Translations under genes and position numbers: made by a program
The notes under the pieces: model-generated
What the model was told of the DNA's origin: nothing
The model's input: only the letters and a program-made list of their open reading frames with translations
Database searches by the model: none
Source: an uncultured bacterium
Lineage (GTDB): Bacteria; Oederibacteriota; PGYV01; CAWJRG01
Assembly: GCA_963845185.1 (NCBI GenBank)
Contig: CAWJRG010000009.1
Span: forward strand, 128,001-192,000
DNA: 64,000 nt
Reading direction: 5' to 3'
In this document: piece after piece, positions 2,999 to 63,457 of the stretch
Numbering within the stretch: the first letter of the stretch is position 1
Layout of the letters: the number at the start of each line of letters is the position of its first letter

Positions 2999-5900
2999 AT
3001 GAGAAAAAAGATGACGAAATTTATCTTCTTGACTGCAATATTTATACTGTTTGCTTCGGCGATTTTCGCATTGACACCGAAAATTATAGTGGTGGCGCCA
3101 GGCGAAAGCTTTACAACAGGCTCTGGAAAATCGGGCACGCCATTACCCCAGACAGCAGGAGTATATTTTAACGTTACTGTTTACACAATAGACCAGGATA
3201 CATGGCAATATTACAATAACGGCGGTTCACAACAAGCCAGCATGACAGCATCCAACGTGAACGTAACTTTCCAGCCGCAAAGGCCGGTTATTAACCAGAC
3301 AGTTTCAAGCACGCAAGACTGCGCATATTACCCTGTAAGCACTTTGGCAAGCACAAGTATAGGTTCGTCGCAATATGTTACCATTACCAGCCAGGACGGC
3401 AGCAGCGTTGGTTACACCCCTATAACAGCCAGCAATTCTATCATACATATTTTTGACATAGCTTCTTATGCGTTTACAACAATAACAACCCAGACAGTAA
3501 CAACCCAGGCAGTAAGCAATCCTATTCAGGTTACGATAACAGCTTATGACTCAAACGGCGCCACGGTGACGTCATTTAATGGCCAGGCAAATTTAACAGC
3601 TTATTATACAGGCGGGAACGGTGATGCTACAGTTTCGCTGGGAGCCATTAATTTTACAAACGGCAAGTATATAGGTTCTTTTACCCTGGCCCAGTCAACA
3701 GCATCAGGGGAGACAGTTTACATACAATGCTCTTCAACCACTCCTCCTATCTCAAGCAATAATATCAGCAACCGCTTCTCGGTAAACCCGGGAGCTTTTT
3801 ACCAGCTTTTAATAATAGGGCCAGGACAGACATTTGCGCCGGGCAACCAGTTATTAAACGGCAGAGTCGGCGGCTCCACACAGACAAACACAGAGATGGC
3901 AGGCGTGCCTTTTTATGTTACGGTTTATGCCTGTGACGAGAACTGGAATAACATAACAGGCAATTCGAGCTGGGTTACCATGACTTCCACTGATTCGACT
4001 TACACTACATCTTCATTTGCGCTCGTAGCAGGCTTTAAAATTGTCCCAATTACTTTGGATACAGTAGGGGCGTTAGCACAGCAAAGCCTGATATCGCAAA
4101 GCATTAGCGTAACATCAAATACAGATTTTGTACCCATGACTTATAACAGCCTCGCAAGTTTTGCTTTCCAGCAAATAGGCACCCAGAGCGCAAGCCAGGC
4201 ATTCAGGGTTTCGATAACCGCGCTTGACGCTTATGGAAATACAGTCGGTAACTTTAGCAACAGCGTAAACCTTACAGCTTTAAGCGGCGGGGTAGCCATG
4301 AGTTCAGGACAATGGTCGCCGACAAGTGTTACATTCGCAAACGGGATATGGCAAGGCAATGTCATAATAAGAAGAATTTCGGTTCAGGCAACTTTGCAGG
4401 CGAGTTACAGTGGCACAACAGGAACAAGCAATATTTTTCAGGTCAACGCAGGCGTGGAGACTAAAATAGTGGTTACCGGGCCATCAACAGCAGTTGCCGG
4501 CAATCCGGTATTGATGAATGTTTATGTGTCTGACGCAAATGGGAATACAGTGGCTACAGGAGCAGGAAGCAGCGATATTATACAGATTACATCCACTGAC
4601 GCCCTTGCCACTATTGGAGGCCAGGCTTTGCCGCAATACGTGACACTTTCAGGAGGCGTCGGGTCTTTTAATATAGTCATGGGCACAGTAGGCACAGGGC
4701 CGCAGACTATCACAGGCACAGATAAGACAACGTCTCTTACTACGGGGAACGCCAACATCAGCGTGACTCCGGGCACCATGAGTTCTGTAGTATTTTCAAA
4801 CATAGGGAATCAGACAGCAGGCATTGCGGTCTCAGGCGGCATCACCATAACAACAGAAGACAAGTACGGCAATGCAACTCCGTATTCGGGGCTTTTGTAT
4901 GTTTCATCGCCTTTGACTGACTGGACAAATCCAAACGCGACGACAATATCAATAACAGCAGGCGGAAATAATAATGTATTTTTTGTCCAGCAGGAATACG
5001 CAGTAAGTTTTACAAGCCAGAGCTCGGCAGTTGTCGGATGCACATTTCACAGGGCCACTTACCCGCAATCAATAAGCATATTCGCGAGCACTCTTATTAC
5101 CGACGCTTTTTCTTCCACTCCGACAGGCCATCTTGGATGGAGCAACAGTTTCACGGTCAGCACAGGCGCCTCGTTTCAGTTGCAGGTTTTAGTGCCTGGC
5201 ATGAATGCAAGGCCTGGCACTGCCACTGGTTATTATGGACAGCCAACAGCAGAGGGAGTAAGCGTGCCTATTACAGTAACAGTGAACATGGTGGATAGCT
5301 GGTACAATATTACAAGTTCAACTGACCTTATTAGCCTCGACACAACTGACGATACTCATGCAGGGTCATCACCACCAGTGGGCCTTCCGATTTCAGGCCC
5401 GATTGGGACATACTACATATATGATGCTCAACCTAGCTCTGATTTTCAAATTATTGCAGCTGACTCTTCTCATCCTGTCACAATAGCGCAAGGCGAAACT
5501 CCATATATTACAATATTTAATATAAGCCAATTAATAGTTTCTGTTCCTACTGTCGGCACCCAGACTGTCGACCAGATGGCAGGCGTTGCTTTCTATATAA
5601 CTATAACAGCGTATTCTGCTTATCCAGTAACTGCAACCACATTTAACGGTACAGTAAATCTGGCTTCATCAACCAATTACAGCGCTTCCTTATATGTCAT
5701 AAGCCCGACTATATCAGCACAGTTTGTCAACGGTGTATGTGGCATGTGGATTACGGTTTACAAGGCAGATTCAACATACATAACCGGCAAACAAGTATTG
5801 CTGGAAGCAACACTGGGAAATGTTACAACTTACAGCAATCCTATCAATGTTGTGCCAAATGTCGGCACAAAAATAATGATTCTTGCTGACGGTATGTCAC

Positions 5901-8405
5901 CCGAACCGGGTTTATATGCTGTAGGAATCCCGGGATATGCAGGATACAGCGGTTCGCCAAATACAGAGATAGCAGGCAGGGCTTTTCCCATTGTGGTTCA
6001 AATAGTGGATGCCTATTATAACGGGGTAACCACAGTCTCAAATACAATAACTATTAATTCTACTGATACGCAGGCGCAGATAACTGATATTGGGACCCTG
6101 CCGCAAAGTAATATTCCAATAACTAATGGATACTTTACTGACGCGAACATGGTATTAAAAACAGTGGGCGCAAACGGGTTTCAGACCATTACAGTTCAAG
6201 ATTCAAATGTCAGCATTGGCTCAAACACAACGCCGAATATATATTTGCAGCACGCCGCACTGGCAGGATTTACAGTAGCGGCGCCGCCAGGCCCAATACT
6301 TGCGGGACAGTCTTTTAATATTAATGTAACAGCGGTTGACGCTTACGGCAATACTCTGGACAATGGCCAGGGCGCTACAGCATTTCCTGCCAATGACCCG
6401 GTAACCCTGAACGCTATTACCGGCGCAAATACCATATATCCGCTGCAGACATTTCTTTCAAACGGCACGATACAGGTACTCGTTACATTGTATGCATCAG
6501 GCTTGGATACAATTACAGCAAGCTGGGGAGGCAAATCCGGCACGAGTTTAGGGACTCAAATAAATGCGAATGTTTTCTATAGGCTGTGGATTGAAGGACT
6601 TGGAATGGCGCAAAATCCCGGAGTTTATTCTTTCGTGCCCCCGAGCGCTTATGGTTATAGTGATTTTTTAATGTATATTGGCATGCCTGTAACACGGTCA
6701 GTAAACGACAACAGTAATTCACCAAGCGGGTGGCCTTTTGAAGTTTACGCTGTTGATGAATATGGAAACCTGACAACTACAGGTGCTGATAATATACAAC
6801 TTATAACAAACGACCCTTACGCAATACCTGTGACAATCACGCCGATATCAGGAGACGTGGCGCCATTTCTCGTTATTTTTCATACTGCAATGGCAGGTGT
6901 AAGCGTTTCGGCAATTGATTTGAGCAATCCGGCAATCCTAGGATTTACAACTCCGGGATTCCCGACTACAGCCGGAGCTCCTTACGGCTTGCAGATAGTG
7001 CCCCCGGGAGAATATGTCTTGGCAGGCTCAGGCGGCATAGGAGCATATGGACTATGGAACAACGGCGTAACAGGCGTGGCAGATGCCCAGATTACCGGCA
7101 CTTATTTCCCTGTGTCAGTGCTGGCGTGTGACCAATTCGGCAATTTTACGTCAGGGGATAATAATGACGTTGTAGAAGTTACATGTACTGATTTATCACC
7201 TGCGATTCCAAATACAGGCACTCCTTTATTCGTTACTGTGGAGGCAGGCATCACAACATTTACAGCAAGGCTTATAACAGCTCACAGTTCACAGGTCATA
7301 ACTCTGGATGATTATACAAACAGCGTCACCATGAATCACAATCCGCTGTCGTTCGCATCCATAAGGGTTATTCAAAGCAGCGATTTAGTTTACAAAATAA
7401 TAGTAAATGGCGTATCAAATGTAACAGGAACAGAATCCGTGACTGTGACTGCTTATCCCGCGACTTTTAATGTGGAAGTTGAGCTGGTGGATGGAGTATC
7501 AGGCTTGCCGGTATCAGGCCTAAATGATGCCTTCGGGTTATATCCGGTGCTTGCTTCAAACTTAAACGCGCAAGGGCATGGCACTCTTGGAGTACAATTA
7601 GGCCAATTCCCACCGGGATTCCAGGGTGCAGTATGGCAGATAACAGGAACAGCAGGGGAAACATATACTGACTCTGAATCTATAAGGATATTTGTATCAG
7701 ACCAGACTAATACAAATGTGGATTCAGCATATTCGTGCAAGATAATTGTCGGAGCAAACCCGGCTACAGCCACGTTTACCCTGACAGCCAATCCGCCAAA
7801 TATCAGGGCAAATACTTCTTCGGTTATAAGCGCGCACCTTGTGGACGGAAACGGGAACCCGATAGTAGGCCAGACAGTTAACTTTTACATTTCGCAGGGC
7901 ACAGGCTCTCTGTCAACGTCCACGGCAAGTACGACAGCCCAGTACGGCGGCGGTTACCAGGACGCTTTCGGTTGACTTTATAGGATCTTTTGTAAACGGC
8001 AAGACTTCGGTTGTAGGATGGTTCCCCACATCAGCCGGGCCAAAATATGAAACAGTGACCGTGTCTGTATCACTTGTGGACCCGATAGACGGGGTTGTGT
8101 CGAATTATCCAAACCCGTTCAGGGCAGGTTTTGAATCCACAAATATTTCCTGGCTCATGACCACGCCAAACGACGTGAGCGTAAATATATATAATTTATT
8201 CGGAGACCTTGTGTACAAGACCTCGCTGACAAAACAGCAGGTGGACTCGCTCATACAAAATGAAGGGAATGTGGTTACCATACAATGGAACGGCAAGAAC
8301 AACAGGGGCCAGGTCGTGGGCAACGGCGGTTATATACTCATAGTGAATACGATAATAGACGGCCTGCCCAAGAAAATGGCCAGGAAGATAGCGGTGGCGA
8401 AATGA
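2999..8405 (+). CDS. Large secreted Ig-repeat (invasin/Big-like) surface protein with T9SS-type/FlgD-Ig C-terminal domain; split by a 1-nt frameshift near 7966-7968
   Basis: Signal peptide and about 10 repeats of VxxxDxxGN (VTITAYDSNG, VSITALDAYGN, VTAVDAYGN, VYAVDEYGN...). Removing one T joins ORF 2960-7975 to ORF 8055-8405 (DASVDFIGSF...NYPNPF...WNGKNNRGQVVGNGGY...KIAVAK). Confidence 0.8.
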
Positions 8406-8413
8406 TAATAATA

Positions 8414-8481: not shown

Positions 8482-8503
8482 ATAATATGAAGGAGGAAGA
8501 TAA

Positions 8504-9750
8504 ATGAAAAGATTACTGGCTGTAACAGCAGCAATATTGATACTGACAACCTTTGCTTTCGCGGCAGGGGATTACGGCACGCCGGGCGAGTTTCTGAACT
8601 GGGGCGCAGGCGCAAGGGCGCTGGGCATGGGTAGGGCATTTACCGGCCTGGCCGATGACGTGGCTGCCATTTATTATAACCCGGCAGGACTGGCGCAGCA
8701 AAACCCTTTCCAGATTTCGCTTATGCATGTGACTTTGTTTTACGACACCATGTACGATTTCGCCGCGGCGAGTTACCCGGTTTCAGGCATAGGGACTTTT
8801 GGCCTGGCTTACATAAGGCTCGGTCCACGAATTTTGACGGCAGGGATGAGAACTGGAACTCAACAGGCACCAACCAGTCAATATCAGACCAGGCCGTGAT
8901 ACTCTGCTACGCCAAGGACGTGCTTTCAAATTTAAGCGTGGGCATAAACCTGAAAGTGGTAAATGAAAGTGTTTTCAGTTACAGCGGCGCAGGGTTTGGA
9001 GCGGATATTGGCCTGCTTTTTTACCCGAACGAATACATAAATATCGGCCTTGACGTAATGAACGCGGTGCCGACTTCAATCAAGCTGCAGGACCAGGCTG
9101 AGGTACTGCCGCTTACAATAAAAGCCGGCATAGCATTGAAACTGCTGGGCGAGAGGATAATCCCGGTGGTGGATGTCCAGAAGGAAATGGATAATAAGGA
9201 TGTAAAGTTCATGTTCGGGCTCGAGGGATACCCGGCCCAGTTTATGGCCCTGCGCATAGGAATGGACGAGACCGAGCAGCTTACCGTGGGCGCAGGGGTA
9301 AATTTCATGAAATATTATAAAATCGACTACTCGTTTTCATCGGAAGCGCTCGGATATTCGCACAGGCTTTCGCTTACGATGGCTTTTGGAGGGTTTGACG
9401 TGAACCTGGCCGCGGACCCGAAGATATTCTCGCCTGTGGGAATAAGAAAGATAACTACCATTTCCATATACGCCATGACCAAATATGAAATCACGGAATG
9501 GGAGCTGGATGTAATAAACGAGGACGGCGACGTCGTGAGGACATACAGCGGCGAGGAAAAACCGCCTGCTTCGGTCATGTGGGACGGCAAGGACGACAGG
9601 GGGCTGCCTGTAGGCGACGGCGAGTATGTATGCCAGATGAAAGTCAAGGATAAGAACGGGAAAGAAATCAAGTCAAACGACGAAAAGGTAAAAGTGTCAA
9701 GCGCCCTGCCAATGCAGCCGGGCAACCTGGAAATACAGCAGGAGCAGTAA
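8504..9750 (+). CDS. PorV/PorQ-family (UPF0164-like) outer-membrane barrel with C-terminal FlgD-Ig-like module; 1-nt frameshift near 8822-8823
   Basis: Signal peptide and family motif GAGARALGMGRAFTGLADDVAAIYYNPAGL. Adding one base joins ORFs 8504-8899 and 8896-9750 (LG-STNFDGRDENWNSTG...AVILCY). The barrel end KIDYSFS...GYSHRLSL is followed by WELDVINEDGDVVRTY...WDGKDDRG. Confidence 0.85.
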
Positions 9751-9775
9751 ATAATAAAAAACCGTGTTTATAAAG

Positions 9776-9806: not shown

Positions 9807-9815
9807 GTTATTAAC

Positions 9816-10250: not shown

Positions 10251-10265
10251 AAAAAGGAGAAGGAT

Positions 10266-27194: not shown

Positions 27195-27237
27195 ATATAT
27201 GTAGAAAAGAGATTTAATAAGATTCCAGGTGATCACT

Positions 27238-30200
27238 ATGAAGAAAAATATAAATTCATCTCTAAAGTTTTTAATAATAACCTTCATAGTATTATCATGC
27301 TTATTTTTAATAAATACCAAATATTTGTTTGCCGCACCGCCGCAACTTGAGATATCAGGGACTAGAATCGTCAGAGTAAGCGATGGCTGCGCAGTAAGGT
27401 TGGTAGGCGTGGATATATGCGGTCTTGAATGGGAGGAAAATGGTATGGGGCCGCCCAACGGCGCTGGCGGGGATATGACGCAGTCAATTACCGTTGCTGT
27501 CAATACATGGAAATGCAATATAGTGCGAATACCATTAGACCAGGATTTCTGGTTTGGCTATGATAACGGCACATCTTCTTCTTCAACAACACAGAATACA
27601 ACTTACGAGAGTAATTATAGAACTTATGTTACCAATGTGGTCAACGCGGCGTCGAACCTTAATTGTTATGCCGAACTTGATTTGCACTGGTCCGGCACCG
27701 GGTCGTGGGGGTCGTCTGTGGGTGCAGCACAACAGACTATGCCTGACAATAATTCTACAGCTTTCTGGGCAAGCGTTGCCGCGACATTTGCAAACAACCC
27801 GGCCGTTGTGTTTGACCTCTACAATGAGCCATATACTGCAAATGGCGTGACATGGACTACCTGGCAAAATGGCGGCTCAGCAGGGTCATTTAATACTCCG
27901 GGGTTCCAGTCTCTGGTACAGACTGTCAGGGATACCGGAGCAAAGAATGTAATCATAGTTGGCGGATTGGCCTATTCATACGATATGACAGGAATAGCAG
28001 GGCATGCACTTGTGGACAGAAACACAGGCAACACATTAAGCGGATACGGCATTATGTACGACGCGCATATATACGACAATAAGTCGGTCAACAACGCGAC
28101 TGGCTGGGATTCAAGTGTATCAATGTTGGTTCAATCAGGATACTGCGTAATGATAGGTGAATTTGGGCCTATGACAGACGGAAGCCAGGACAGTGGCACT
28201 GCATGCAATCCTTTTGAGTCGAGTCTAATTACATGGATAAACGGTTCAAACGCCGCGAATTATGATTATTCGGCTATGGGCTGGTGTTTTAATGATTCTG
28301 CCACTCCAAAACTGATATCAGACTGGAATTTTACAGCCACTACATGTCATGGTACCGATGTAAAGAACTGGCTTGCTGCAATAACGCAACCAACCTGCGG
28401 GCCAGCTTCGTCTCCAACAAACACTCCGAACATTACGCGTACTTTTACGCAGAGCCCCACACTGACTCAGACACCTACACTTACAAGAACATCAACATTG
28501 ACAGCAACCAGGACTTTTACGCCGACATTCACAGATACTTTTACTTTAACCATAACACCAACAGTTACTTATACGGCAACAAGGACAACAACACCAATAG
28601 CGACGATGACAATCACATCAACATGGACACCTACTGCAACAGGCACATTGACGGTAACAAGGACAAATACAGGAACATATACAGTTACTGGTACAAATAC
28701 ACCTTTGCCTACAGCAACTTTAACAGCGACAGCGACATACACGCAAACTCACACAGTTACATTGACTTGGACTAGTACGTTACAGAACACTATAACTTTG
28801 ACGGCGACAGGTACAAATACGCTATTGCCTACGTCAACAAGGACAAATACCGGCACATATACAATAACAGGCACAAATACGCTATTGCCAACAGCAACAA
28901 ATACAGCAACTCCTTCCTTAACGGCAATACGCACAAATACATCAACCCCGACTTTTACTACAACATCAACGTCGACATATACAGTTACATTAACTTGGAC
29001 AAGCACGCTGCAGAATACGGCAACTTTAACGGCAACACGCACAAATACCTTAACGCCAACATTTACTACGACGCCTACACCGACATATACAGTTTTATTA
29101 ACTTGGACAAGCACACTGCAAAACACGGCAACTTTAACAGCGACAGGCACAAGTACTACGACAAGGACGCCCACGCCGACGTATACAGTTTCATTAACTT
29201 GGACAAGTACACTGCAAAACACGGCAACTTTAACAGCGACAGGCACAAGTACTACGACAAGGACGCCTACACCTACGTATACAGTTACACTAACTTGGAC
29301 AAGCACACTGCAAAACACGGCAACTTTAACGGCAACAGGCACAAGCACTACGACAAGGACGCCCACGTATACAGTTACACTGACTTTTACATCGTCGGTT
29401 ACACCGACAAATACCAATTCACCTGTGGTGTCACCTACACCTACATTTACTAATATAGTTTTTACATGGACAATAACACAGACATTTACTATATCACCGA
29501 CAATAACAATGACAAATACACCTCTGCCGACTGGAACAAATACGGGGACACCTACGTTTACTACAACAAGGACAAACACAGAAACATCAACTTTTACTAT
29601 GACACATACGCCAACATATACAGCAACTCTGACTTGGACAAGCACAGCACAGAACACAGTAACTTTAACAGCGACGGGAACAAATACAGGGACACCTACG
29701 TTTACGGCAACAAGAACAAACACAGAAACATCAACTTTCACTATGACACATACACCAACATATACAGCAACTCTGACGTGGACAAGCACAGCACAGAATA
29801 CGGCGACTTTAACAGCAACAGATACAAATACACCGTTACCGACAAGCACAAGCACAAACACAACGACACCTACTTTTACAGCTACGAGGACAAACACAGC
29901 GACTGATACTCCGACAAACACGCCTTCATATACAGTAACATTGACTTATACATTGACGGTTACATTAACATTTACCAATTCGCCGGTGGTATCACCTACG
30001 CCGACATTTACTAATATAATATTCACGTGGACGATTACGCAAACATTTACGATATCACAGACAATAACAATTACAAACACTCCTACGCATACACCGAGCG
30101 ATACTCCAACAAATACACTTACTAATACAGAAACAAACACACCGGTAAATACAGCGACAAATACGCTTGTTAATACAAGGACAAACACGCCAGTAAATAC

Positions 30201-42783: not shown

Positions 42784-44828
42784 ATGGGGCTAAAAATGAG
42801 GTTTTTAGGAACGTTTTTTTTCGTAATAATTGTTTTTGCCCCTTTTTCGATTTTAAGCCAGGATTTTGGAACAACCACAGGGGAGTTTTTAAAAATAAAT
42901 CCCGATGCCGAAGCAGAAGCAATGGGTGAAGCATATATAGCCCAAGCAGACGGCACAGCAGCTCTCATATATAACCCATCTGGACTTTCACTTCTTGATA
43001 AAGCCGAATTATCCCTAACTGAGTTATTATGGTTTAACAGTCTCTATATAGAACACGCCGCAGTTGCATATCCTTTTAGCCCGGGATTTGCGATAGGCGG
43101 CAGTGTTTTATGGATGGATACCGGAAAATTTGATTCGACCGGATATGCGCAGAACGCAATAAGCATTCAGGACGGGTTTTTTAATTTTGGAATTGGATGC
43201 AGCCTGCTTGATTCACTTCATATCGGCGCGGATGCAAAATTAATTTATGAAAATTACTTTGGCAACGCATCCTTTGGCACATCTTTTGACCTGGCGGGGA
43301 TTGTTAATTTTATAGGGAATAATTTTTCGGGCGGGATCGTAATTAAAAACCTCGGGTTTCTATCAGGTACCACCGATATGCTGCCTTTTGAAGCAGGAGT
43401 AGGACTTAATTATTCGGTTTTTGACGGAACGACAAGGACTTTTTCCATAAATTTGGACGCAGACAAAATACTGAATACTGACAACATTTACGTTGCATTA
43501 GGAGCGGAAACACTTGTTTTTAATGTGCTGGCCCTGAGGCTGGGCGTAAAATACAACAACGCGCTTAATATTGATTTTAATAATATTTCATTTTCGAATA
43601 TTGAAAGCCTAATGATACTTTCAGGCGGATTCGGCATAAACATTGGAAACGCATTTGCCATCGATTATGCTTTTACTCCCATGGGAGAGCTCGGGGCCGT
43701 ACAGCGGGTTACTTTAAAATTCAAATTTGGAGAGTCAATGCGCGAAAAGGCAATGTACGCTAAAGCAAAAGAGGCTGTTGTCGCTCCTAAAAATATGGAA
43801 ATACCGAAGGTTGAAACCTCGCAGGGAAAGATAAAGGAAGTTTCTTTTAAACCGCAGGTACCACAGGAAAATGTAAAGGAATGGAAACTGGAAATTAAGA
43901 CTTCCGACGGCAAGATAGTAAAAACATTCAGCGGAGTTGGCGAGGTGCCGAAAAATATAGCATGGGACGGGACAGACAGCTACGGCAAAATAGCCGCAGC
44001 CGGCGTGGGGTATGTGTACGATTTCAAGGCGAAGAGTACCGAGGGCAAAATTACGGAAAATACTGGCAAGATAACGTCGGCAAATAAATTCAGTTTCATG
44101 GAAGATGAAGTCCGGTATATTCCGGAAAGGAACAAGGAAATACTGGTTGTGCCTTTGACGCTTTTAATTTCGTCCGACAAAGAGGAAAGGAAAAAAGTGC
44201 CTTTTGTCATGGTCAATAAAGAAATAAAAAAGGTAACAGGATGGGAATTCACAATAAAGGACAAGAATGGCGAAATTGTCAGGTCATACAAAGGCAACGG
44301 GGACGTACCTTCTTACCTTGTATGGGACGGTAAAAATATGCAGGGCGAGACGGTACCGGATTCCAAATCCTGTGCGTATACACTTAGCATAAAAGGCGAA
44401 AAAGGGAAGGAAGCCCAAGTAACGAGCCCTGAAATAATGAGGGATCCGTTTACAGCTGCAACCAATACAAAGGTGGTAAAGCTCGCGAAGAAGATATACT
44501 TTGAATTGGATTCCGCTGCAATAGCTCCAGAAATGTATGACAGGCTTTCTCAGATTGCCGCTGAAATCAAGAGTTACGGCGCAACTTCCATATATATCCA
44601 GGGCATTCGAGCAAAGAGGGAGATGAAGCCCATAACCTGGCACTTTCTTACGAAAGGGCAAAAGCTGTTTTGAAATACCTGGTGGAGGTATTAAAAGTCG
44701 AGTCGGAATCAATAAACGCGGTCGGTTACGGTACGGAAATACCTGCGGCAAGCAATGAGACAGAAGAAGGCAAGGCAAAGAACCGAAGGGTTGAAATCGT
44801 CATAATAGCGGAAAAAAACTTCAAATGA
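42784..44828 (+). CDS. PorV/PorQ-family barrel fused to two FlgD-Ig-like modules and an OmpA-like peptidoglycan-binding domain; 1-nt frameshift near 44601-44603
   Basis: FLKINPDAEAEAMGEAYIAQADGTAALIYNPSGL; IDYAFTPMGELG; two W...I.WDG modules. Adding one base gives GHSSKEGDEAHNLALSYERAKAVLKYL...GYGTEIP...NRRVEI, ending at TGA 44826-44828 (ATGA overlap with the next gene). Confidence 0.85.
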
Positions 44829-45877
44829 TTAAAGGTATATTTTTTACAGCGCTCATAACTGGATTTTTGTTTTTGCCGGTTGCCGCTGAGGAAACCCCGG
44901 AGCACATCTATAATATGGCAACGGACGCCATGACAAAAGGCGAAGACGCCGTCGCCATACAGCTTTTTTACAAGGTAACTGAAGAATACCCGAATTTTAA
45001 AAAATACAGGGCCGACGCGCTGTACATGCTAGGGCAGCTCCTTTTTAAGACCGAGCGTTATGACGAAGCGGAAAAAACTTTCAGCACGCTTATTTCCAAA
45101 TATAAAAAGTACCAAAAAATAGACAAGGCTTATGAGTACCTCATTTATATTTATACCGAGGAATTCAACGATAATGAAAAGGCAAAGAAAATAAGGGACC
45201 TGTACGCAAAGGAGTTTGGGACGGACCGCACGCTAACCAATATTGACAGGACCATGGATTTGCTCGACAAGGAGAGGAATTACGATATGCTCAAACTTGA
45301 CGCTTCAAACATGGAGATAAGCAGGTTTGAGGAAGCGACGGATTTCCAGACAGAAATTTTCCCCATCCTTTGCTATAAAAAAGATAAAGCCATGTCGAAC
45401 GACAAATCGATGTCGGTAGAAAGGAAGAAGACGCGGGGCGGCTATTATTTATTTTTAAACTACCCGCGGGGAAAAAATGGAAAAAAAGTACCTGACAGCA
45501 AAAATGGGTACATGCCGCAATGGGCGTGGGACGGCAAGTATGTAATTTTTACTTCCATGAACTGGGATACAATGTTGAGAAGAATAATGCTTTATGACCT
45601 TGAGAAGAACAAGACAAAAGTGATTTTTAGGGCTAAAAAAATAGATCCTCTTTTGTGCTTTTCACCGGATTCATCGAAAATAATTTTTATATTTGAAGGC
45701 AAACTGTGGATAACAAACAGGGATGGAGGCAATATATCAAAGTTAAACAACAAAATTACAGTAAAGGATGCTTTTGTAATGGCATGGGCTAAAGAGGGGG
45801 ATAAGTTATTGCTTAAAGAGGATTTACAAGGCAGCAAATACAAGATTTGTTACCTGACAAAAAGAGAGCTTAAATGA
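44825..45877 (+). CDS. Exported TPR plus TolB/PD40-like beta-propeller protein
   Basis: Signal peptide; ADALYMLGQLLF TPRs; PQWAWDGKYVIFTS, CFSPDSSKIIF, AWAKEGDKLL. Confidence 0.75.
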   Translation: MIKGIFFTALITGFLFLPVAAEETPEHIYNMATDAMTKGEDAVAIQLFYKVTEEYPNFKKYRADALYMLGQLLFKTERYDEAEKTFSTLISKYKKYQKIDKAYEYLIYIYTEEFNDNEKAKKIRDLYAKEFGTDRTLTNIDRTMDLLDKERNYDMLKLDASNMEISRFEEATDFQTEIFPILCYKKDKAMSNDKSMSVERKKTRGGYYLFLNYPRGKNGKKVPDSKNGYMPQWAWDGKYVIFTSMNWDTMLRRIMLYDLEKNKTKVIFRAKKIDPLLCFSPDSSKIIFIFEGKLWITNRDGGNISKLNNKITVKDAFVMAWAKEGDKLLLKEDLQGSKYKICYLTKRELK

Positions 45878-53573: not shown

Positions 53574-56500
53574 GTGAGAAAAAAAAATTCCGCACAAATA
53601 CCCTTTAAGTTTCTGATAATATTATCCTTTCTTTTGCTGCCTCAGATGCTTTTCGCGGCCGGTGAAATGTACCTGGGCTCGGCCGTGCCGCCAACCCCAA
53701 TTGCAACTGCTTCCGGAGTGTCAACACAGGCTTCACCTTCCGCAATATCACCGCAGGCATCGCCTTCAGGCGTATCGGGGTCGGCATCGGGTGTCACAGG
53801 CACGGCAAGCGCCGTCACACAAACCGCGACTTTGGCTTCACTGGGAGCAGAGGACATGACAGGGAACGGCAAAGGCCCGGCGAACTTCAAAGTCCAGGCA
53901 GAAGGCATGAAAATAACCTTAAGCTGGTCCGCCGCACAAGGCGGTACGGACGTGTATTACAATATTTACAGGAGCACAGACCAGGCGAGGGCCGATTTTA
54001 TCAAAATAAACAAAGACGACAGCCTGCAAAGCCTGACATACATAGACAATTCGAAAAACAGCTTTACGCGGCCGAAGCAAAAAATAAAATATTTTTATAA
54101 AGTGGCTTCGCTTGTGCTGGCAAAAGAAACAGGGGAGACCGACATGCTCACGGTCACGCCGACCGGGCCGCTTGTACCGCCGCCGGCCGACAGCATAAGT
54201 TTTAAGGCGGCAGACAAGGAAATCTCGCTTGCTTGGGAAGAGCCGGAGTCAAGCGGCGAATACGACTTAAGCGGGTTTAACGTTTTCAGGTCAACGGACA
54301 GCAGCAATAACGGGAACAAATTAAACGAAGAACTTTTAAAGAAATACACCTATGATGACTTTGGGGAAGCGGACAACCCGCTTGACAACGCAGTAAAATA
54401 CTATTACAAACTGCAGAGCGTGGACTCGGCAGGCAACACGTCGGATTTTTCAGTACAAATCGCGGCTGAGCCGCATGTCAGCATCAGCGAGCCGAAAAAT
54501 GTCACCGCAGCCGTTTCTTCAAACGAAAGCATAAAGCTCGCGTGGGGTTCGCCTGAAGTCAAAGGCACGTTCGGCCTGTCGGGATATAATATTTTCAGGA
54601 GCTCGATAGCCGGAGTTTTTCCCGACCAGCCGATAAACGTAAACTTAAGGCCGGAATACACGGACGACGCGGGGAAAGTATTTTATTTCGACAACATCAT
54701 AAACAGCGTAACGCCCCCGGAAATGGGCGTGACATATTATTACAAGATTCTGCCCATGGACATGAAAGGCAACACAGGCACGCCCAGCGCCGTGATAACC
54801 GCGGGTATAGCGTATTTAAACGTGCCCCAGAGCGGCATTGTTTCGGCTGAAATGTCCCAGTACGGCCTGCCGCCGGAATCGAAACTTACCGTATCGGGCA
54901 TGAAGACCGTGGACCTTTCCTACGGACAGGTCTGGCCAAGCTCGGCTTATTCGACGAACATAGTAAAGGGGTTCCAGCCGAAACAGGAGCTCAGGATAAA
55001 ACTGCAGGGCCAGATAGGCACCAACATACTGGTTGACGTTGACTACGACGACAACGCCGTGGAAGCGGAAAGGAAAAAGATTTCAATAAAGTACCAGGGC
55101 AGCAAGGACGAGACGGTCCAGGAAGCGGCTTTCGGCGACATAACGCTCTCCCTGCCGTCCACAAGGTTTGTCAGCTACAGCCAGTCGCTTTTTGGAATAG
55201 AGGCAAAGGTCAACATCCTGGGCGACAAACTCAGCCTTACAGGCATAGCGGCGCAGACAAAAGGGATTTCTGATGTGCAGACATTCACGGGCAATTTGAG
55301 GTTTTTTGAAGTAAACGGAAAAAGGGGCATTGATATTTATGACACGTCATTCATTGCGAACAAATATTATTACCTCTATAACCCTACCACAAATACCTGG
55401 CCAACGGGATCTTCGGTAGTACCGGGCTCGGTGGTGGTGTACGTAAACGACGAGATAGCGTCGGATGACAATGCCAATACAGTTCACGGCTATGACTTGA
55501 AATTACTGGGCGCGGATTATACCGTGGATTATAAAAACGGCATTATAATGTTTACATCCCCAATGAACGTCTATTACCAGGTGGCAGTAGCATACCTTTA
55601 TACCGACAGCAGCGGAGGCGTCCATAGCGTTGGTTTTAACTCGGCGGGCACAGCAAATCCGGTGCCTGCGAATTTTGAATTCAGCAATCTCAGCAACCTT
55701 TATTGGATACAAAACGGCTTCGGCGATATTTCACATAAGGTCATGAACTATTATTACCTTGGAGCGACCCAGATATATAACCCGTCGTCAGACCCGAATT
55801 TTATAATAAAGATTTATCAAAAAGGAGGCACAAACGAAAATGACCTTCCGCCGCCGAACAGCACCCTTGCTGCGAACTATTATTCGATAGATACATCTTT
55901 CGGCATATTAAAATTCAACAACCAGAACTTCCCGTATCCTTTTGTGCTTGGACAAAACAATTCGCAGATAGCAGTGCCGGTGGGAATTCCCACCGATGGT
56001 TCAGCACCTGCGCCTATAAGCGGGAACGCAGACTGCTATAACCAGTACAGCCCGCAGTCCAATTATTACATGCACGTGGAATTCCAGTATTACGTATCGT
56101 CATATACACTTGACCATTCACCTGTTGTCCTTGGGAGCGAAAAAATTTATATCAATAATGTACTGCAGAAAAAAGACGTTGATTATTACATGTTTTACGA
56201 AACAGGGGAAATTCATTTTTACGACCCGAGCAAAATTCAGCCGAATGACCAGATAACCGTGGCTTATGAATATTCGCCGTTTTTACAGACATACGAGGAC
56301 AATCTGCTCGGAGCCAGGGCAGAGTACAAGATGCTCGACAATTTGTTTTTAGGCTCCACGTTTTTATGGAAAAGCAGCAACACACAGGGGGACCTTGCGC
56401 CTGACGCGCGCTCCACGTCCACTTCGCTGTCAACGCCTTACAGGATGTTCATACTTGACGCCAACGCCATCTATGACCTTGGCAAGGACCAGATAAACCA

Positions 56501-59500
56501 GGCGTTAAGCACTTTGCCTTTTGTCGGGAAAACAGATTTGCCGCTGTCCCTGACTACAAGCGCGGAAATAGCCCAAAGCAATTTCGACATAAATATTTTC
56601 GACAGGAACAATGAAACCGGAGTCGCAATGATAGACAGCATGCAGGGCACGGACAATACATGGCAGACAGTAATGGATTTGAACTCGTCGCCCTCATGGT
56701 TCCCTTCAAGCAAGCCGCTTGCAGTTGACAGCGTGCTTGTGTCGCAGACTACAAGGGTGCCCATAAGGCGCACCAGCAAGCTGGAAATGGGACATTTGTC
56801 AACCCAGGTCGTAAACGGGGCCACAGTGGCTGCCTCGCCCGAAGCGATTCTTACTTACAGTTACAATGGCCTTAATAATCATCAATGGGACGGAATACGA
56901 TATGTTGTTTCGCCCCACGGCCAGGATTTTCACTCGTACAATTACCTTAACATGTGGGTTAATGTCAGCACTGACAACCCGGTAAACCTTTGCGTTGATA
57001 TCGGCATTATGAACGAGGATTCAGTGGGAGACGGGAACCTTTACACAGAGGACCAGGCAGGCAACGGACAATACAATTCAGCGTATGACACAGGGGTCCA
57101 GTGGAAAAACCCTGCAACAGGGCTGTGGCAATACCCGCCGTTTAACGGAGGGGACCAAAACTATTGGGGGGCGGGCAATGGCCAGCTCGATACAGAAGAC
57201 GTAAACGGCAACGGTTCGCTTGACCCGACCGACGCTTATTATGAATATTCGCCTTTTGGCGGTACCATACCGCATCCTGAGTTACAGCTTTCCGGGACAG
57301 GCGGATGGAAAAACATAAAAATACCGCTGAGGGATTTTGCAGCGGCATATAATGTGACCACAGACCCTACTCAGCCGAGTTTCATGTCGTCGGTAGAGTG
57401 CATCAGGGTATGGCTCAGCGGCGCAGGCTCTGCAGGAAGCACGGGATATGTGAAATTTGAGCCAATACAGCTGACAGGCAATTCGTGGCAGCTAGAGGTG
57501 GAACCAAACGCAGTGGACAAGGCAGGTAACTTCATTACCTCGCCTGACACGTCGAAATTAAACGCGGTTACCATAAACCAGAGCACAAACGCGGCCTACC
57601 AGCCCAACAAGGAATTTTTTGATTACCAGACAGCGACAGACCTGCAATCGCAGCAGGCGCTGGAGCTCGATTATAACCTTTCAATCAATGACATGGACAG
57701 CAACACCCAACCTGTATATACGGTTTCGAAAACATTGAGCCAGACTGTAGGGTATGATTATTATTCCTACAACTATTTAAAAGTGGACGTATTTTACGCA
57801 AAAAAAGACCCGACTGCGCACGGCAAGGTGCTTTTCCTGAGGCTCGGCTCAGGCACGAACACGGATATATCGCCGAATTATTACCAGTATAATATCCTGC
57901 TTGACGACGCCGTGCCGACCGACAACAACTGGCACACAGTAACCATAGCGCTTGACGGCTCGGACAAAATGAGGGGCGCACCTGTGGGCATACCGAACCT
58001 GAGGAGCGTGCAGTATATCACAATGGGCATAATAGACCCGAACAGCGTGCCCACGAACAAGACCGTCTGGATAGACAATATCAGGCTTACAGACCCGAAA
58101 CCAAGGGTAGGAACGGCAAAATACGAAAACACCACGGTAAATTACGCGGGTTTAGGGACATTTACCCAGGAATACGAGGAAAGGGATACTGATTTTTATA
58201 CAATAGTGGACGTGGATAACGAGCAGATAAAACCGCATTCTATAAGGAACAGCCTAGATTTTCTGTACACACAGATACCGTTTTTACAGATGGACAACAA
58301 TTACACCAGGCAGATTTATAAAACCGAGGACAAATACAAGGACGACCTTTTATTTACAAACAATTATTTAAATCCCGACACTGACAATAGTACTTTATCC
58401 AACAAAGCAACCTTGAGCCTCATACCCGGGCTTTCCCTTGCTAATAACCTGAGTTTTAGCGGCATGAGAAGCAATTACCTGCCTTATTACTACTACGAGA
58501 CTAATTATTCGCAGGTTTTTACAGAAAGGCCGGTTGCCCAGTACACGGCGCCGACCGAGATTCCGTTGTACGGCGGCGCAAAAATACCGCTGGGCGCGAA
58601 TACCCTGTCAGCCGATGTACTCGTGAAAAAAACAAATGTTACGTATTTTTACCCAATGCCGGTTTCCGCGACAATAAACTGCGCCAATTGCTGGAGCCAG
58701 TTGAACTGGCACAGGGAACAGCTTTATTCATGGAAGGACGCCATCAACGCGAACATATTCACGCTCACGCCTTCATACGCTTTTAAGATTGTGGATGAAG
58801 AGGGAAACCTGGCGAGCAACTACACATATTACCAGAATGACGTAGACAACCATTTTTCCACAAGAGGCAGGACTCTCATGCTGCACAAGGAAAACGCGCC
58901 TGCATTGAGCCTGGCTGTGGCAAAACTCTGGATTTTAAGCCCGAAACTTGATTATTCCTCATCTCAGGTCAGGGATTACAGCCAGGGCACATTAAACGTT
59001 AATAATACCACGGCTTTTTCGAGCGGCCTGGCATTTAGTTCCATCACAAACCAGCTGGTACCGGACGGCACTTATTCGCTGAGGATTAATACAACAGCCA
59101 TGTACAACGACCTGGCGCCATACACGGATTCGACTTATTTGTTTTACAAAATGCCTTTTGAGTCGCAATGGGGAATAAATGAATGGAAAATGCCTTTCGG
59201 CGATAAATTTAAAACCCAGGGCAAAAGTGAAATGTCCTGGTATGAAGACTCGGCAAATACCGACTCGATAACGATTTCGCACAGCATCGGCCTTAGCGCA
59301 GTAAAGCTTTTAAATTACCTGAGCTTTACGCCGCAGCTCACGCTGAGCACGCAGAGAAATGCGAGCAGCAGGCTTTTAAGCGGGCTGCAGTACACGACCA
59401 CCCTTTCCATTACGCCAATCACCATAGGAAAAATAACGCTTATCAAAGGGCTTGTCGAGGACCAGACCATAAGCGGAGGCTATACAAACACCGACAACAA

Positions 59501-60011
59501 AAGCATGGATCCGCAGAACCAGACAAGCGTAAACAGCCACTCGGTCGCGCAGACCGCAAACGTGAACCTGCCTTATTCGGTAAAGGACGGTGTAAGCGGG
59601 GCGCTGGGGCTGACAGGCAACTGGACAAACAACCAGCTGCTGGATGTATCGTCATGGGCATATACTCTTTCGCCGAATTTTACAATCAATTATGTCCTGA
59701 AGCTGGTCAAGCCGGTCCAGATCGCGAATTTTATACCGTGGATAGGAGGCAAGGAAATAAAATTCACCCAGGACATAAACCTGAACGGCACCCTGGGTAT
59801 GGATATGACAAGGGGCGGGGGAGTAGGAGACAACGGAATTAATAAAAAAGATTCCAGTACATACAAGATAAGCGCAAGCGCGGATTATAAATTCCTGCAG
59901 AATGTCGAGGGCCGCCTGACTTTCAGTTATAATAAAAACATAGACATGATACTGAAACAGAACCGCTACGACGCCATAATGATAGATCTTTATTTTAAAG
60001 TGGAATTTTAG
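53574..60011 (+). CDS. sprA: SprA/Sov-family large outer-membrane translocon with N-terminal FN3-like domains
   Basis: LQGQIG...VDYDD...ISIKYQGSKDETVQEAAFGDITLSLPSTRFVSYSQSLFGI; GSEKIYIN...DVDYY...GEI; LGSTFL; DTEDVNGNGSLD; C-terminal Phe (DLYFKVEF). Confidence 0.82.
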   Translation: MRKKNSAQIPFKFLIILSFLLLPQMLFAAGEMYLGSAVPPTPIATASGVSTQASPSAISPQASPSGVSGSASGVTGTASAVTQTATLASLGAEDMTGNGKGPANFKVQAEGMKITLSWSAAQGGTDVYYNIYRSTDQARADFIKINKDDSLQSLTYIDNSKNSFTRPKQKIKYFYKVASLVLAKETGETDMLTVTPTGPLVPPPADSISFKAADKEISLAWEEPESSGEYDLSGFNVFRSTDSSNNGNKLNEELLKKYTYDDFGEADNPLDNAVKYYYKLQSVDSAGNTSDFSVQIAAEPHVSISEPKNVTAAVSSNESIKLAWGSPEVKGTFGLSGYNIFRSSIAGVFPDQPINVNLRPEYTDDAGKVFYFDNIINSVTPPEMGVTYYYKILPMDMKGNTGTPSAVITAGIAYLNVPQSGIVSAEMSQYGLPPESKLTVSGMKTVDLSYGQVWPSSAYSTNIVKGFQPKQELRIKLQGQIGTNILVDVDYDDNAVEAERKKISIKYQGSKDETVQEAAFGDITLSLPSTRFVSYSQSLFGIEAKVNILGDKLSLTGIAAQTKGISDVQTFTGNLRFFEVNGKRGIDIYDTSFIANKYYYLYNPTTNTWPTGSSVVPGSVVVYVNDEIASDDNANTVHGYDLKLLGADYTVDYKNGIIMFTSPMNVYYQVAVAYLYTDSSGGVHSVGFNSAGTANPVPANFEFSNLSNLYWIQNGFGDISHKVMNYYYLGATQIYNPSSDPNFIIKIYQKGGTNENDLPPPNSTLAANYYSIDTSFGILKFNNQNFPYPFVLGQNNSQIAVPVGIPTDGSAPAPISGNADCYNQYSPQSNYYMHVEFQYYVSSYTLDHSPVVLGSEKIYINNVLQKKDVDYYMFYETGEIHFYDPSKIQPNDQITVAYEYSPFLQTYEDNLLGARAEYKMLDNLFLGSTFLWKSSNTQGDLAPDARSTSTSLSTPYRMFILDANAIYDLGKDQINQALSTLPFVGKTDLPLSLTTSAEIAQSNFDINIFDRNNETGVAMIDSMQGTDNTWQTVMDLNSSPSWFPSSKPLAVDSVLVSQTTRVPIRRTSKLEMGHLSTQVVNGATVAASPEAILTYSYNGLNNHQWDGIRYVVSPHGQDFHSYNYLNMWVNVSTDNPVNLCVDIGIMNEDSVGDGNLYTEDQAGNGQYNSAYDTGVQWKNPATGLWQYPPFNGGDQNYWGAGNGQLDTEDVNGNGSLDPTDAYYEYSPFGGTIPHPELQLSGTGGWKNIKIPLRDFAAAYNVTTDPTQPSFMSSVECIRVWLSGAGSAGSTGYVKFEPIQLTGNSWQLEVEPNAVDKAGNFITSPDTSKLNAVTINQSTNAAYQPNKEFFDYQTATDLQSQQALELDYNLSINDMDSNTQPVYTVSKTLSQTVGYDYYSYNYLKVDVFYAKKDPTAHGKVLFLRLGSGTNTDISPNYYQYNILLDDAVPTDNNWHTVTIALDGSDKMRGAPVGIPNLRSVQYITMGIIDPNSVPTNKTVWIDNIRLTDPKPRVGTAKYENTTVNYAGLGTFTQEYEERDTDFYTIVDVDNEQIKPHSIRNSLDFLYTQIPFLQMDNNYTRQIYKTEDKYKDDLLFTNNYLNPDTDNSTLSNKATLSLIPGLSLANNLSFSGMRSNYLPYYYYETNYSQVFTERPVAQYTAPTEIPLYGGAKIPLGANTLSADVLVKKTNVTYFYPMPVSATINCANCWSQLNWHREQLYSWKDAINANIFTLTPSYAFKIVDEEGNLASNYTYYQNDVDNHFSTRGRTLMLHKENAPALSLAVAKLWILSPKLDYSSSQVRDYSQGTLNVNNTTAFSSGLAFSSITNQLVPDGTYSLRINTTAMYNDLAPYTDSTYLFYKMPFESQWGINEWKMPFGDKFKTQGKSEMSWYEDSANTDSITISHSIGLSAVKLLNYLSFTPQLTLSTQRNASSRLLSGLQYTTTLSITPITIGKITLIKGLVEDQTISGGYTNTDNKSMDPQNQTSVNSHSVAQTANVNLPYSVKDGVSGALGLTGNWTNNQLLDVSSWAYTLSPNFTINYVLKLVKPVQIANFIPWIGGKEIKFTQDINLNGTLGMDMTRGGGVGDNGINKKDSSTYKISASADYKFLQNVEGRLTFSYNKNIDMILKQNRYDAIMIDLYFKVEF

Positions 60012-60046
60012 TATAATTTTTTTTAAATATCAGGAGGACTTTTTAA

Positions 60047-63000: not shown

Positions 63001-63457
63001 TGCAAATACCAGTTTTACAGACTATACCACGGCGTGGGGTAGTGATTATCTTTACGAAATTATTGCCATGGACACGGCAGGAAACCTTGACGCAATATAC
63101 CCGGTTATGTCAAAAGGCATACCAAAGACAGCCAATAAATTAATGATATACGCGAATATGATTAATTTAAGCAAGAGCCAGGCATTGACATGGAATTACG
63201 AAGTCATAAGGTCGGACAACATGAAAGTGATTGTTTATACCTTAAGCGGGCAGATGGTAAAAAAATTGTTTGACGGCAGCCCGCCATCCGGCGCTGACCC
63301 GGGCAATCCGCTTGACGGGTGGTCAGGCCAACCGCCACCCGGTTTTATCTGGGACGGAAAAAATTCATACGGCCAAAAAGTGGCGTCCGGAGCATATATA
63401 ATAATGATGGAATTCAAGGACTGGAAAACAACGTATAAAGTGGCGGTTGTAAAGTAG
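60047..63457 (+). CDS. Secreted fibronectin type III repeat protein with FlgD-Ig/T9SS-type CTD
   Basis: Signal peptide; about 9 LxW...YNIYR...YxD...YYY repeats; C-terminus VYTLSGQMVKKL...WDGKNSYGQKVASGAY...KVAVVK. Confidence 0.88.
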   Translation: MKKTLLTLVLLAATAAFALAVDPPANFVLTYPGSGSLQLNWYASDTYTGIGYNIYRSIGDTSNFSLLTATANTTYTDTTDTAQTYYYYIEAFDSNNNKSTITQIMPSRPYPPMSVAITPYNAKIYLEWNNSIESDSSTYNIYRSSTDNVEYSLLPATGNDYIDSPVLNALTYIYKIAATNPSGPYSITLPASVTVSAQGPYSAPVSAVPYSAPFAPLGISSGLSTTQNTMYLSWAQTNTAGTFETTYYEIYRSTYDMMPGPATFDAYDTFPFPAPQTYTVTNTYYYNPMTPGVNNYFSIYTVDSMGNFSLPASGYVYDPIQSMPLAPTGLTITSSNLTGVSLAWAANPSADNVTQYAVYRGTTLAAQALYVTVAAASFTDTTITAGLFYDYSIVASNAFGSGTNSYNVSATVLPVAPANFKALYNNITYTPGIGVNLTWTQGSSNDNITQYNVYRTTNLSNLIPQPVITPIIIYQGTTYTVSYSYADISITTGNIYYYAATALTTSSVQSLESAIICVTVTTLPAQPQNLTGTAYDSYNTLNWAPNNTADLVSVYNVYRWTTPTSIANITATALTNYLDANLNTSTTYYYTVAALNNIGEGPRAVTITLEPASNIPPHTPVLSASCNGLGQIVLSWDQDPAPGIYYNVYRAISTSAEAWLNSTNANTTTYIDSVMNPTSVSSVANISTVYSYNVGASNTITGYSSFSNTATASAFVGPNSSTLQHIVFTNVSGNVLITWDNPNTICSYSLTGYNIYRSTTTAVINGNNEPVFSPMPITNLAYPANNYLDTGLNANTTYYYEVQLVDSAGNSYTSTYTGFYVDSVLPPPPEVVAISQPSQVTLEWRLINASIISYNIYRRTASGVYTSAIYSEKNALKSQYTDADVIPKTTYYYTVAAVNDAGEGPKSQEVFATPYLPLLVPANSGEAINIINKKDISLSWAQAVSVTVDSKGNTYMSSFGISGYNVYRSNDNGGTYTCITFLAGAANTSFTDYTTAWGSDYLYEIIAMDTAGNLDAIYPVMSKGIPKTANKLMIYANMINLSKSQALTWNYEVIRSDNMKVIVYTLSGQMVKKLFDGSPPSGADPGNPLDGWSGQPPPGFIWDGKNSYGQKVASGAYIIMMEFKDWKTTYKVAVVK

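Follow-up and report, generated by a model that had tools for sequence, protein, structure and literature searches.

A conserved ExbB-ExbD-TonB operon with a PorV-type barrel and a giant secreted protein, and SprA-type export parts without a detectable GldLM motor, in a Goldbacteria genome

Introduction

Secretion through SprA, the translocon of type IX secretion systems (T9SS), is thought to need the PorLM/GldLM motor. The window analysed here, a stretch of 64,000 nucleotides from contig CAWJRG010000009.1 of an uncultured cellulose degrader, encodes a SprA-like protein, barrels of the PorV/PorQ family and secreted proteins that end in a T9SS-type C-terminal domain (CTD). The same window holds an operon for an ExbB/ExbD/TonB-type motor at 2960-16893; at issue is whether this motor powers SprA or does something else. 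The first-pass annotation of the window took the first view, proposing the outer-membrane half of a T9SS driven by a unit of one tetratricopeptide repeat (TPR) protein, ExbB, two ExbD proteins and TonB. On balance we favour a different view, in which two systems stand side by side: a motorless T9SS-like export system and a separate, self-contained envelope machine that would serve its own cargo. A causal link from the motor to SprA export is more likely wrong.

Genomes and searches

The genome (G000; Goldbacteria) comprises 3.50 Mb in 11 contigs and is 99.38% complete. Open reading frames (ORFs) of the window were listed and then scanned against Pfam and NCBIfam. The phylum sample held 41 genomes and the order sample 23; 17 other phylum genomes lay outside the order. 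Comparison of the operon drew on 17 orthologous loci, found in 16 other phylum genomes. The outgroup sample consisted of 31 genomes from the phylum of G042, an Ignavibacteriota-labelled metagenome-assembled genome (MAG). CTDs were sought with a profile built from 50 of the 51 genome matches of a PorU-model search; the dropped row aligned to another part of the PorU model.

An eight-gene operon joins a motor to a barrel and a giant CTD protein

In all 17 orthologous loci, as far as the contigs reached, eight genes followed one another in the same order: giant CTD cargo, barrel, TPR protein, ExbB, ExbD, ExbD, TonB-like protein and a 300-aa Ig- plus OmpA-like protein (Table 1). ExbB, ExbD and TonB_C domains were found in a single operon (PF01618, PF02472 twice, PF03544), and homology predicts that the products are a TonB-like transducer and a proton channel of ExbB, ExbD1 and ExbD2. 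The linker of the transducer measures ~200 aa, and the His of its SxxxH motif was nearly invariant in the orthologue alignment. Domain content or a fold model served to assign the other four products: a periplasmic TPR protein of ~1040 aa, a secreted protein with Ig and OmpA-like parts, a barrel of the PorV type and a CTD-bearing surface protein of ~1790 aa. Neither a Plug domain nor a TonB-dependent receptor was found in the operon.

Both halves of the operon barrel matched NF052325, NF033709 and NF033711. Its fold model (13 orthologues, mean pLDDT 67.5) gave Foldseek matches to FadL, PorV 6h3i_F and 8gl6_F, with PorV 6h3i_F and FadL matched about equally. The C-terminal Ig-like domain of the barrel was highly conserved and, by the usual topology of outer-membrane barrels, would be periplasmic. 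For the PorV-like barrel paired with the C-terminal domain of TonB, complex prediction was uninformative (score 0.00). The last protein of the operon has a signal peptide without a lipobox Cys. It was modelled with pLDDT 77-90 over residues 110-305 as an Ig-like domain and an OmpA/MotB-like domain, and Foldseek matched it (TMt 0.5-0.66) to PA0833, YfiB, a type VI secretion system wall anchor and MotB; it is probably a peptidoglycan anchor. In the giant cargo, Big_1 and the CTD were the only domains recognised by Pfam or NCBIfam, and no carbohydrate-binding module was among them; CHU_C scored 23 bits on the CTD at 8055-8405, under the cut-off of 27. The nearest Atlas clusters of this protein were Big_1/FlgD_ig proteins of Krumholzibacteriota and WOR-3, which we note as a lead only. 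Between the barrel and TPR genes (9750-10266) lie 516 bases here, compared with ~10-150 among the relatives examined. A 41-base repeat occurs twice in this gap (9908-9948, 10152-10192) and once more in part, and may belong to a small inserted element.

Orthologues of the TonB-like protein (43-55% identity, full length save at contig ends) were present in 21 of the 23 order genomes and in three other phylum genomes. A profile of the OmpA-like protein found strong orthologues in 21/23 order genomes, three of them cut by contig ends, and in 6/17 other phylum genomes. Some match to this profile was seen in all 41 phylum genomes; in the remaining 11, from five families, it was only partial (at most ~43 bits), and the TonB query had no full-length match in the same 11. 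Completeness is 99-100% for three of these genomes; another, 96% complete, consists of a single contig. Within the order, genes for the 190-aa protein, PFK, the nuclease and FtsE came next on the 3' side of the operon.

Wider searches gave a similar arrangement. A metagenome scan with the TonB alignment returned 22 loci, 17 of them in the same order to the reach of the contig. Among the other five, two divergent contigs (L175, L176) carried the rearranged order TPR-ExbB-ExbD-ExbD-TonB-OmpA-like-cargo-PorV, and two others (L173, L174) agreed with it as far as they reached. That the parts stay together after rearrangement argues for one functional unit. When a genome collection was scanned with the barrel alignment, 76 loci were found, and in 26 the barrel was followed by the TPR protein and ExbB. 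These 26 were labelled Candidatus Goldbacteria, Goldiibacteriota, candidate division FCPU426, Firestonebacteria or unnamed MAGs, some probably mislabelled. PorV-like hits also came under other labels, among them Eisenbacteria, Ignavibacteriota, Elusimicrobiota and Leptospiraceae, and 0 of these 41 loci had ExbB, ExbD or TonB within 10 kb. Two loci (L101, L107) hold a paralogous cargo-barrel pair, again a giant protein and a PorV-like barrel (~40% identity), but neither a TPR gene nor motor genes occur in the 10 kb downstream of it. Across the relatives' 17 loci, the genome-collection loci and the metagenome contigs, the exbBD-tonB block was linked to CTD cargo and a PorV-like barrel and not to a TonB-dependent receptor or to tolB/pal, a pattern that would have spoken against the first-pass annotation.

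SprA, PorV-family barrels and CTD proteins

The T9SS-like parts named in the first-pass annotation were confirmed. The predicted SprA-like translocon matched TIGR04189 in four collinear stretches (183.7 bits, E 3.6e-54), below the cut-off of 200. A profile of this protein and 10 phylum orthologues matched Flavobacterium johnsoniae SprA (6h3i_A) with E 5.7e-44 over chain residues 422-1577. Pfam SprA had no match to the protein, and a single-sequence search of solved structures gave 0 hits. SprA-like genes were found in 40/41 genomes of the phylum sample. The fn3-rich CTD protein stands directly 3' of SprA in the window and in 7/10 relatives examined. On the 5' side, two relatives (G004, G019) have a 219-aa single-pass membrane protein and a GT9 heptosyltransferase immediately before SprA; at 51268-63457 of the window an MCP gene separates the corresponding membrane protein from SprA.

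The two PorV/PorQ barrels claimed for the window were borne out at family level by NCBIfam. The second one (42784-44673) scored 103.4 bits against NF033709 (cut-off 90), and its C-terminal OmpA domain runs on in another frame to 44828, as seen from the frame reading and the OmpA match. The PorV equivalog model NF033710 reached only 23.7 bits against a cut-off of 250. A single-sequence search of solved structures with the second barrel returned nothing meaningful. This barrel belongs to a PorV-like subfamily of 650-780 aa with Ig-like domains and a C-terminal OmpA domain, which unites an outer-membrane barrel and a peptidoglycan-binding domain in a single chain; further examples in the genome are C9:786522-788351, C10:689186-691042, C10:781099-782961 and C6:114268-116124. 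The three TPR proteins expected in the window were also found.

By tblastn, the genome contains 32 PorV-like gene starts. For 21 of the 32, a CTD-ending frame lies no more than 1 kb upstream and on the same strand, and cargo-barrel pairs are therefore the rule in this genome. PorP/SprF proteins, PorV-like barrels encoded beside type B cargo, and the PorZ-PorQ and PorU-PorV pairs are described in the available text of a T9SS review (PMC10202324). The pairs seen here are alike in that the cargo gene is followed by its own PorV-like barrel gene; they differ from the type B/PorP-SprF pairs in having barrels that match the PorV/PorQ models and CTDs that are type A-like, with CHU_C below cut-off. 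To our knowledge, no motor is known beside cargo-barrel pairs in Bacteroidota.

The genome-built CTD profile found 140 CTD-ending open frames genome-wide and recovered all five CTDs that had been proposed in the window (ends 8405, 31311, 37104, 42225 and 63457). Two of the window proteins, GH5 and GH8, also passed Pfam Por_Secre_tail (PF18962). The last ~1000 bases of the GH5 (30300-31311) and GH8 (36100-37104) genes are ~95% identical, with identity dropping upstream, and the comparison suggests recent duplication or gene conversion of the C-terminal regions and CTDs. The PorU equivalog NF033707 matched only CTDs, at no more than 47.5 bits against a cut-off of 420. A protein of 1657 aa at C5:17878-22908 has Peptidase_C25 (129 bits), CBM_3 and a type A CTD (Por_Secre_tail, 40 bits). 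Encoded on the minus strand, it resembles PorU and is a candidate for the protease that cleaves CTDs. The genome has one more C25 protein, which lacks a CTD, around C9:89683-91182.

Features in common with the Bacteroidota T9SS are a SprA homologue, barrels that belong at family level to PorV/PorQ, cargo with type A CTDs (cellulases among it) and a CTD-bearing C25 peptidase. The genome differs in that SprA and PorV fall below equivalog cut-offs and in its 32 PorV paralogues, mostly paired with single cargo genes. CTD proteins are restricted to Bacteroidota according to the T9SS review as available (PMC10202324), and the available text of another source lists other FCB phyla as possible T9SS carriers, Goldbacteria not being on that list (PMC11285876). 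Type IX secretion appears in the Goldbacteria paper PMC7031533 in the reference list only. A full-text literature search, mostly at the level of titles and abstracts, returned no T9SS parts in Goldbacteria and no PorV-type barrel in an operon with ExbB/ExbD/TonB.

The usual T9SS motor was not detected

Pfam and NCBIfam scans upheld the earlier statement that PorK, PorL, PorM, PorN and PorU are missing from the window. Across the whole genome, GldL, GldM (TIGR03513, TIGR03517) and GldN had no match at E<=1, and PF12081 had none either. GldK reached at best 45.2 bits against a cut-off of 350, and this match was confined to the FGE-sulfatase part. The neighbours of the FGE-sulfatase genes showed no diverged gldKLMN-like arrangement. 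A full porKLMN set elsewhere in the genome, which would have spoken against the first-pass annotation, was therefore not found, and GldM was found in 0/41 genomes of the phylum sample.

As a positive control, GldM and GldL were found above cut-offs and adjacent to each other in the same 6 of the 31 outgroup genomes; the control covers GldL and GldM, and there is none for GldN. A GldM search of five genomes, selected by way of loci that carry the labels Firestonebacteria, Ignavibacteriota, Bacteroidota, Elusimicrobiota and Eisenbacteria, found nothing. SprA was present in 26/31 genomes of the outgroup phylum, 20 of these without a GldL/GldM match. The SprA-positive, GldL/GldM-negative outgroup genomes include two single-contig genomes with SprA at ~2600 bits. 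Either the GldL/GldM models are narrow, or SprA without GldLM is common and widespread. The second possibility agrees with a remark in PMC11705866, whose available text describes Melioribacter and Ignavibacterium as having PorV, SprA and Plug and no other T9SS protein. Those genomes resemble ours in having outer-membrane T9SS parts without other T9SS proteins. They differ in belonging to another phylum, and the available text of that paper gives no energy source and no motor operon.

These results support the earlier claim that the organism has the outer-membrane half of a T9SS without the usual motor: SprA, PorV-family barrels and CTDs are present, and GldL, GldM and GldN were undetected. As predicted from sequence, this is a SprA/PorV/CTD export system without a detectable usual motor, in this genome and in the phylum sample. 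No such motor was seen in a whole phylum sample, nor in many SprA-positive genomes of another phylum, and one may ask how export is powered there, or whether SprA has to be powered at all.

Does the motor drive SprA?

One answer would be that the TPR-ExbB-ExbD-ExbD-TonB unit replaces PorLM/GldLM as the general motor for all SprA-dependent CTD cargo. The absence of detectable GldL, GldM and GldN, with the GldL and GldM searches validated by the positive control, would leave room for such a motor. The motor block always adjoins CTD cargo and a PorV-like barrel, and GldLM and ExbBD share the build of a 5:2-type proton motor. However, SprA was not syntenic with the motor block. The distance between them is 38 kb in the window and ~29 kb, ~950 kb and ~390 kb in three relatives (G004, G019 and G034). 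Both operon markers were lacking in 11/41 phylum genomes, all 11 of which keep SprA, and the five that were tested had 14, 34, 23, 18 and 18 Por_Secre_tail matches. The OmpA-like profile found 0/31 in the outgroup phylum with its 20 SprA-positive, GldLM-negative genomes. Only one of the 32 PorV-like genes has an ExbB/ExbD/TonB motor beside it. In addition, should the frameshifts described below prove real, this genome would combine a broken ExbB with an intact SprA and ~140 intact CTD frames. We consider a general motor of this kind very improbable.

The claim of the first-pass annotation that this unit drives the SprA system is thus not supported. Of the linkage it expected, the part joining cargo, barrel, TPR protein, exbBDD and tonB held in related genomes, and the part concerning synteny or co-occurrence with sprA did not. 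With no fixed link between the set and SprA, it is more likely a machine private to its own cargo than a general motor. A different Ton-type motor may still serve SprA.

Three ExbB-ExbD-TonB sets were found in the genome, one in the window and one each on C5 and C10. The C5 set adjoins two plug-domain receptors, i.e. it is a classical set. The C10 set (C10:529996-536958) comprises a 996-aa TPR protein, a 567-aa plug-less receptor-like barrel, ExbB, ExbD and TonB. Its ExbB has orthologues in 23/23 genomes of the order and is kept more widely than the window operon.

What the operon may do

We tentatively propose that the eight genes form an undescribed envelope machine in which a Ton/Agl-type motor works mechanically on the giant CTD protein through its private PorV-type barrel; we rate this as a serious possibility, somewhat short of probable. 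In this picture the OmpA-like protein would fasten the motor to peptidoglycan, and the TPR protein would be the motor's scaffold. Through TonB the motor would act on the PorV-type barrel, which in turn would hold the CTD of the giant protein. By analogy with the Agl-Glt core complex, the output might be to export, tension, move or expose the giant protein; powering SprA for all cargo would not be its task.

The closest published architecture is that core complex. Luciano et al. 2011 (PMC3169522, available text) define it as aglR, aglQ, aglS, gltD, gltE, gltG, gltC and one extra gene, and describe it as one operon, widely scattered and of unknown function, in Gammaproteobacteria, Geobacter and Fibrobacter succinogenes. 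In F. succinogenes it is Fisuc_1892-1897, where Fisuc_1894 (212 aa) is an ExbB. Raut et al. 2019 (PMC6851124, available text) report that FSU_2400-2403 (ExbB, ExbD, ExbD, TonB) are up-regulated on cellulose and that the neighbouring OmpA FSU_2396 and TPR FSU_2397 were found in complex with cellulases. We infer that Fisuc_1892-1897 and FSU_2396-2403 are the same cluster. By architecture and description, the window operon and the core complex are alike in having one ExbB-type, two ExbD-type, one TonB-like and large TPR proteins in one operon, and the Fibrobacter cluster adds to the likeness an OmpA protein and a link to a cellulase apparatus. The published description of the core complex, in its available text, is without a PorV-type barrel or CTD cargo, and GltG has an FHA domain, which the TonB-like protein of the window lacks. 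The best reading by analogy is that the operon encodes a machine of the Agl-Glt/Ton kind using a T9SS-type barrel; its motor half has a published architecture, and the barrel and CTD cargo go beyond it.

A Tol-Pal-like system was considered as an alternative, with TolQ, two TolR, a TolA-like protein, the OmpA-like protein as a Pal analogue and a YbgF-like TPR protein serving outer-membrane tethering or constriction, and with cargo and barrel as mere neighbours. The best NCBIfam matches of the operon ExbB and ExbD were indeed to TolQ and TolR, both sub-threshold, and the TPR protein passed tol_pal_ybgF. The modelled OmpA-like fold of the last protein and the genes downstream (FtsE, FtsX and an M23 peptidase, FtsE being kept there within the order) would fit as well. 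No TolB was found in the operon, however, TolB-like propellers occurring elsewhere; TolA reached 24 bits against a cut-off of 59.45, and the missing lipobox Cys of the OmpA-like protein differs from a Pal lipoprotein. The distribution was also patchy, the set being absent from 11/41 genomes of which several are 96-100% complete, and cargo and barrel were still linked in the rearranged contigs. The second TPR-barrel-ExbB-ExbD-TonB module on C10, present in all 23 order genomes, is a further point against a Tol-Pal-like role, which we regard as unlikely.

Another alternative is TonB-dependent uptake, in which the FadL/PorV-like barrel would import, for example, cellodextrins, and the giant CTD protein would be a surface substrate-binding partner. 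Authors of the Fibrobacter study proposed TonB-dependent cellodextrin import for the cellulose-induced FSU_2400-2403 (PMC6851124, available text). The modelled barrel fold equals that of FadL-type transporters, and many CTD-tagged glycoside hydrolases are encoded in the genome. The operon also resembles TonB-ExbB-ExbD systems with receptors in its ExbB, ExbD and TonB_C domains, its SxxxH helix and the transmembrane Asp of ExbD. Unlike them, it has a second ExbD gene and a TPR partner of 1040 aa, and it lacks a plug-domain receptor; the six Plug domains of the genome all lie outside it. The PorV/PorQ family signatures of the barrel and the absence of a recognised carbohydrate-binding module in the giant protein argue in the same direction. 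Uptake seems to us a doubtful explanation, a little less likely than the Tol-Pal-like one.

If the proposal of a mechanical envelope machine holds, it points to unstudied machinery: proton motor, TPR scaffold, peptidoglycan anchor, PorV-type barrel and giant surface protein remain linked even where the genes are rearranged. Of the systems closest to it in the literature, neither the Agl-Glt core complex nor the Fibrobacter cluster induced on cellulose has a known function. In a cellulose degrader, such a machine could serve substrate adhesion or display of the degrading apparatus. It would bridge T9SS carrier barrels and Agl-Glt/Ton motors, both evolutionarily and mechanistically, in a lineage with SprA export without a known motor.

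Frameshifts and other points against the proposed machine

Three-frame reading showed that five of the genes discussed here are frameshifted in the assembly. The breaks lie at 7869-7975 in the cargo, 8680-8899 in the operon barrel, 11938-12194 in the TPR protein, near 13854 in ExbB and near 44595 in the second barrel; in ExbB, the third transmembrane helix is read in the +1 frame. None of the sites is a homopolymer. Relatives have single reading frames for the cargo (1783-1939 aa in 13/14 loci, split in 1/14), the operon barrel (410-427 aa, 16/16) and the TPR protein (1023-1059 aa, 16/16 complete loci), and ExbB was intact in 17/17 (213-244 aa). Hand inspection of short frames revealed further split CTD and receptor (Plug) genes elsewhere in the genome, suggesting assembly indels. 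A crude count of overlapping same-strand frames gave 162 per Mb for the genome and 226 per Mb for the relatives' loci, with no separation. The other large genes of the window, encoding SprA, GH5, GH8 and the 1644-aa and 1136-aa proteins, are intact.

Several observations weigh against the proposed machine. A single operon holds four of the five breaks in a span of 11 kb, and its genes may really be decaying rather than misassembled; with 4/8 operon genes frameshifted in the assembly, ExbB included, the machine may be dead here. The scores of ExbB and ExbD against TolQ/TolR and of the TPR protein against tol_pal_ybgF count on the same side. NCBIfam GltE (NF033758) had no match to the operon TPR protein and matched only the unrelated TPR protein at 45956-47833, with 34 bits against a cut-off of 225. 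The operon was judged absent from genomes by two markers, the TonB-like query and the OmpA-like profile, the genomes being drafts, and further ExbB paralogues are present in all of them. Finally, the genome-collection search found the operon only under Goldbacteria-type labels.

Features of the window

Coordinates of the features are collected in Table 1.

Table 1. Features of the 64,000-nucleotide window, with the evidence for each assignment.
Feature	Coordinates	Strand	Evidence and remarks
Giant secreted protein, ~1790 aa, with signal peptide, Big_1 and C-terminal CTD (operon cargo)	2960..8405	+	ORFs 2960-7975, 8055-8405
PorV/PorQ-family barrel, 14 strands, with C-terminal Ig-like (FlgD_ig) domain	8504..9750	+	ORFs 8504-8899, 8896-9750
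Giant TPR protein, ~1040 aa, with signal peptide	10266..13386	+	TPR families; ORFs 10266-12194, 11989-13386
ExbB/TolQ-type proton channel (predicted)	13421..14078	+	PF01618; short ORF 13421-13876; match stops at profile position 77/127
ExbD/TolR-type protein 1	14041..14496	+	PF02472, 76.3 bits; transmembrane Asp kept (PLVDV)
ExbD/TolR-type protein 2	14558..14977	+	PF02472, 101 bits; transmembrane Asp kept
TonB-like transducer (predicted): N-terminal transmembrane helix with SxxxH, Lys/Pro-rich linker, TonB_C	14994..15962	+	PF03544, 49.3 bits
Secreted Ig-like + OmpA/MotB-like protein, 307 aa	15970..16893	+	Fold model; no Pfam match
190-aa protein, no signal peptide	16928..17500	+	After operon; conserved within order only; not found in L061, L062
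GH5 cellulase with type A CTD (cargo)	27229..31311	+	PF00150, PF18962, CTD profile
GH8 enzyme with type A CTD (cargo)	31504..37104	+	PF01270, PF18962, CTD profile
Secreted protein with CTD (cargo), 1644 aa	37291..42225	+	CTD profile, C-terminal motifs; no Pfam match
Second PorV/PorQ-family barrel, with Ig-like domains and C-terminal OmpA domain	42784..44828	+	Frameshift near 44595
TPR protein, weak TolB-like propeller in C-terminal part	44825..45877	+	Pfam/NCBIfam
TPR protein, 625 aa	45956..47833	+	Pfam/NCBIfam
Divergent SprA/Sov-like translocon (predicted), 2145 aa, with N-terminal fn3 domains	53574..60011	+	TIGR04189; profile against 6h3i_A
fn3-rich protein with CTD, 1136 aa	60047..63457	+	Pfam scan, genome CTD profile
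Housekeeping genes: PFK, beta-CASP nuclease, FtsEX, M23 peptidase, LptFG		+

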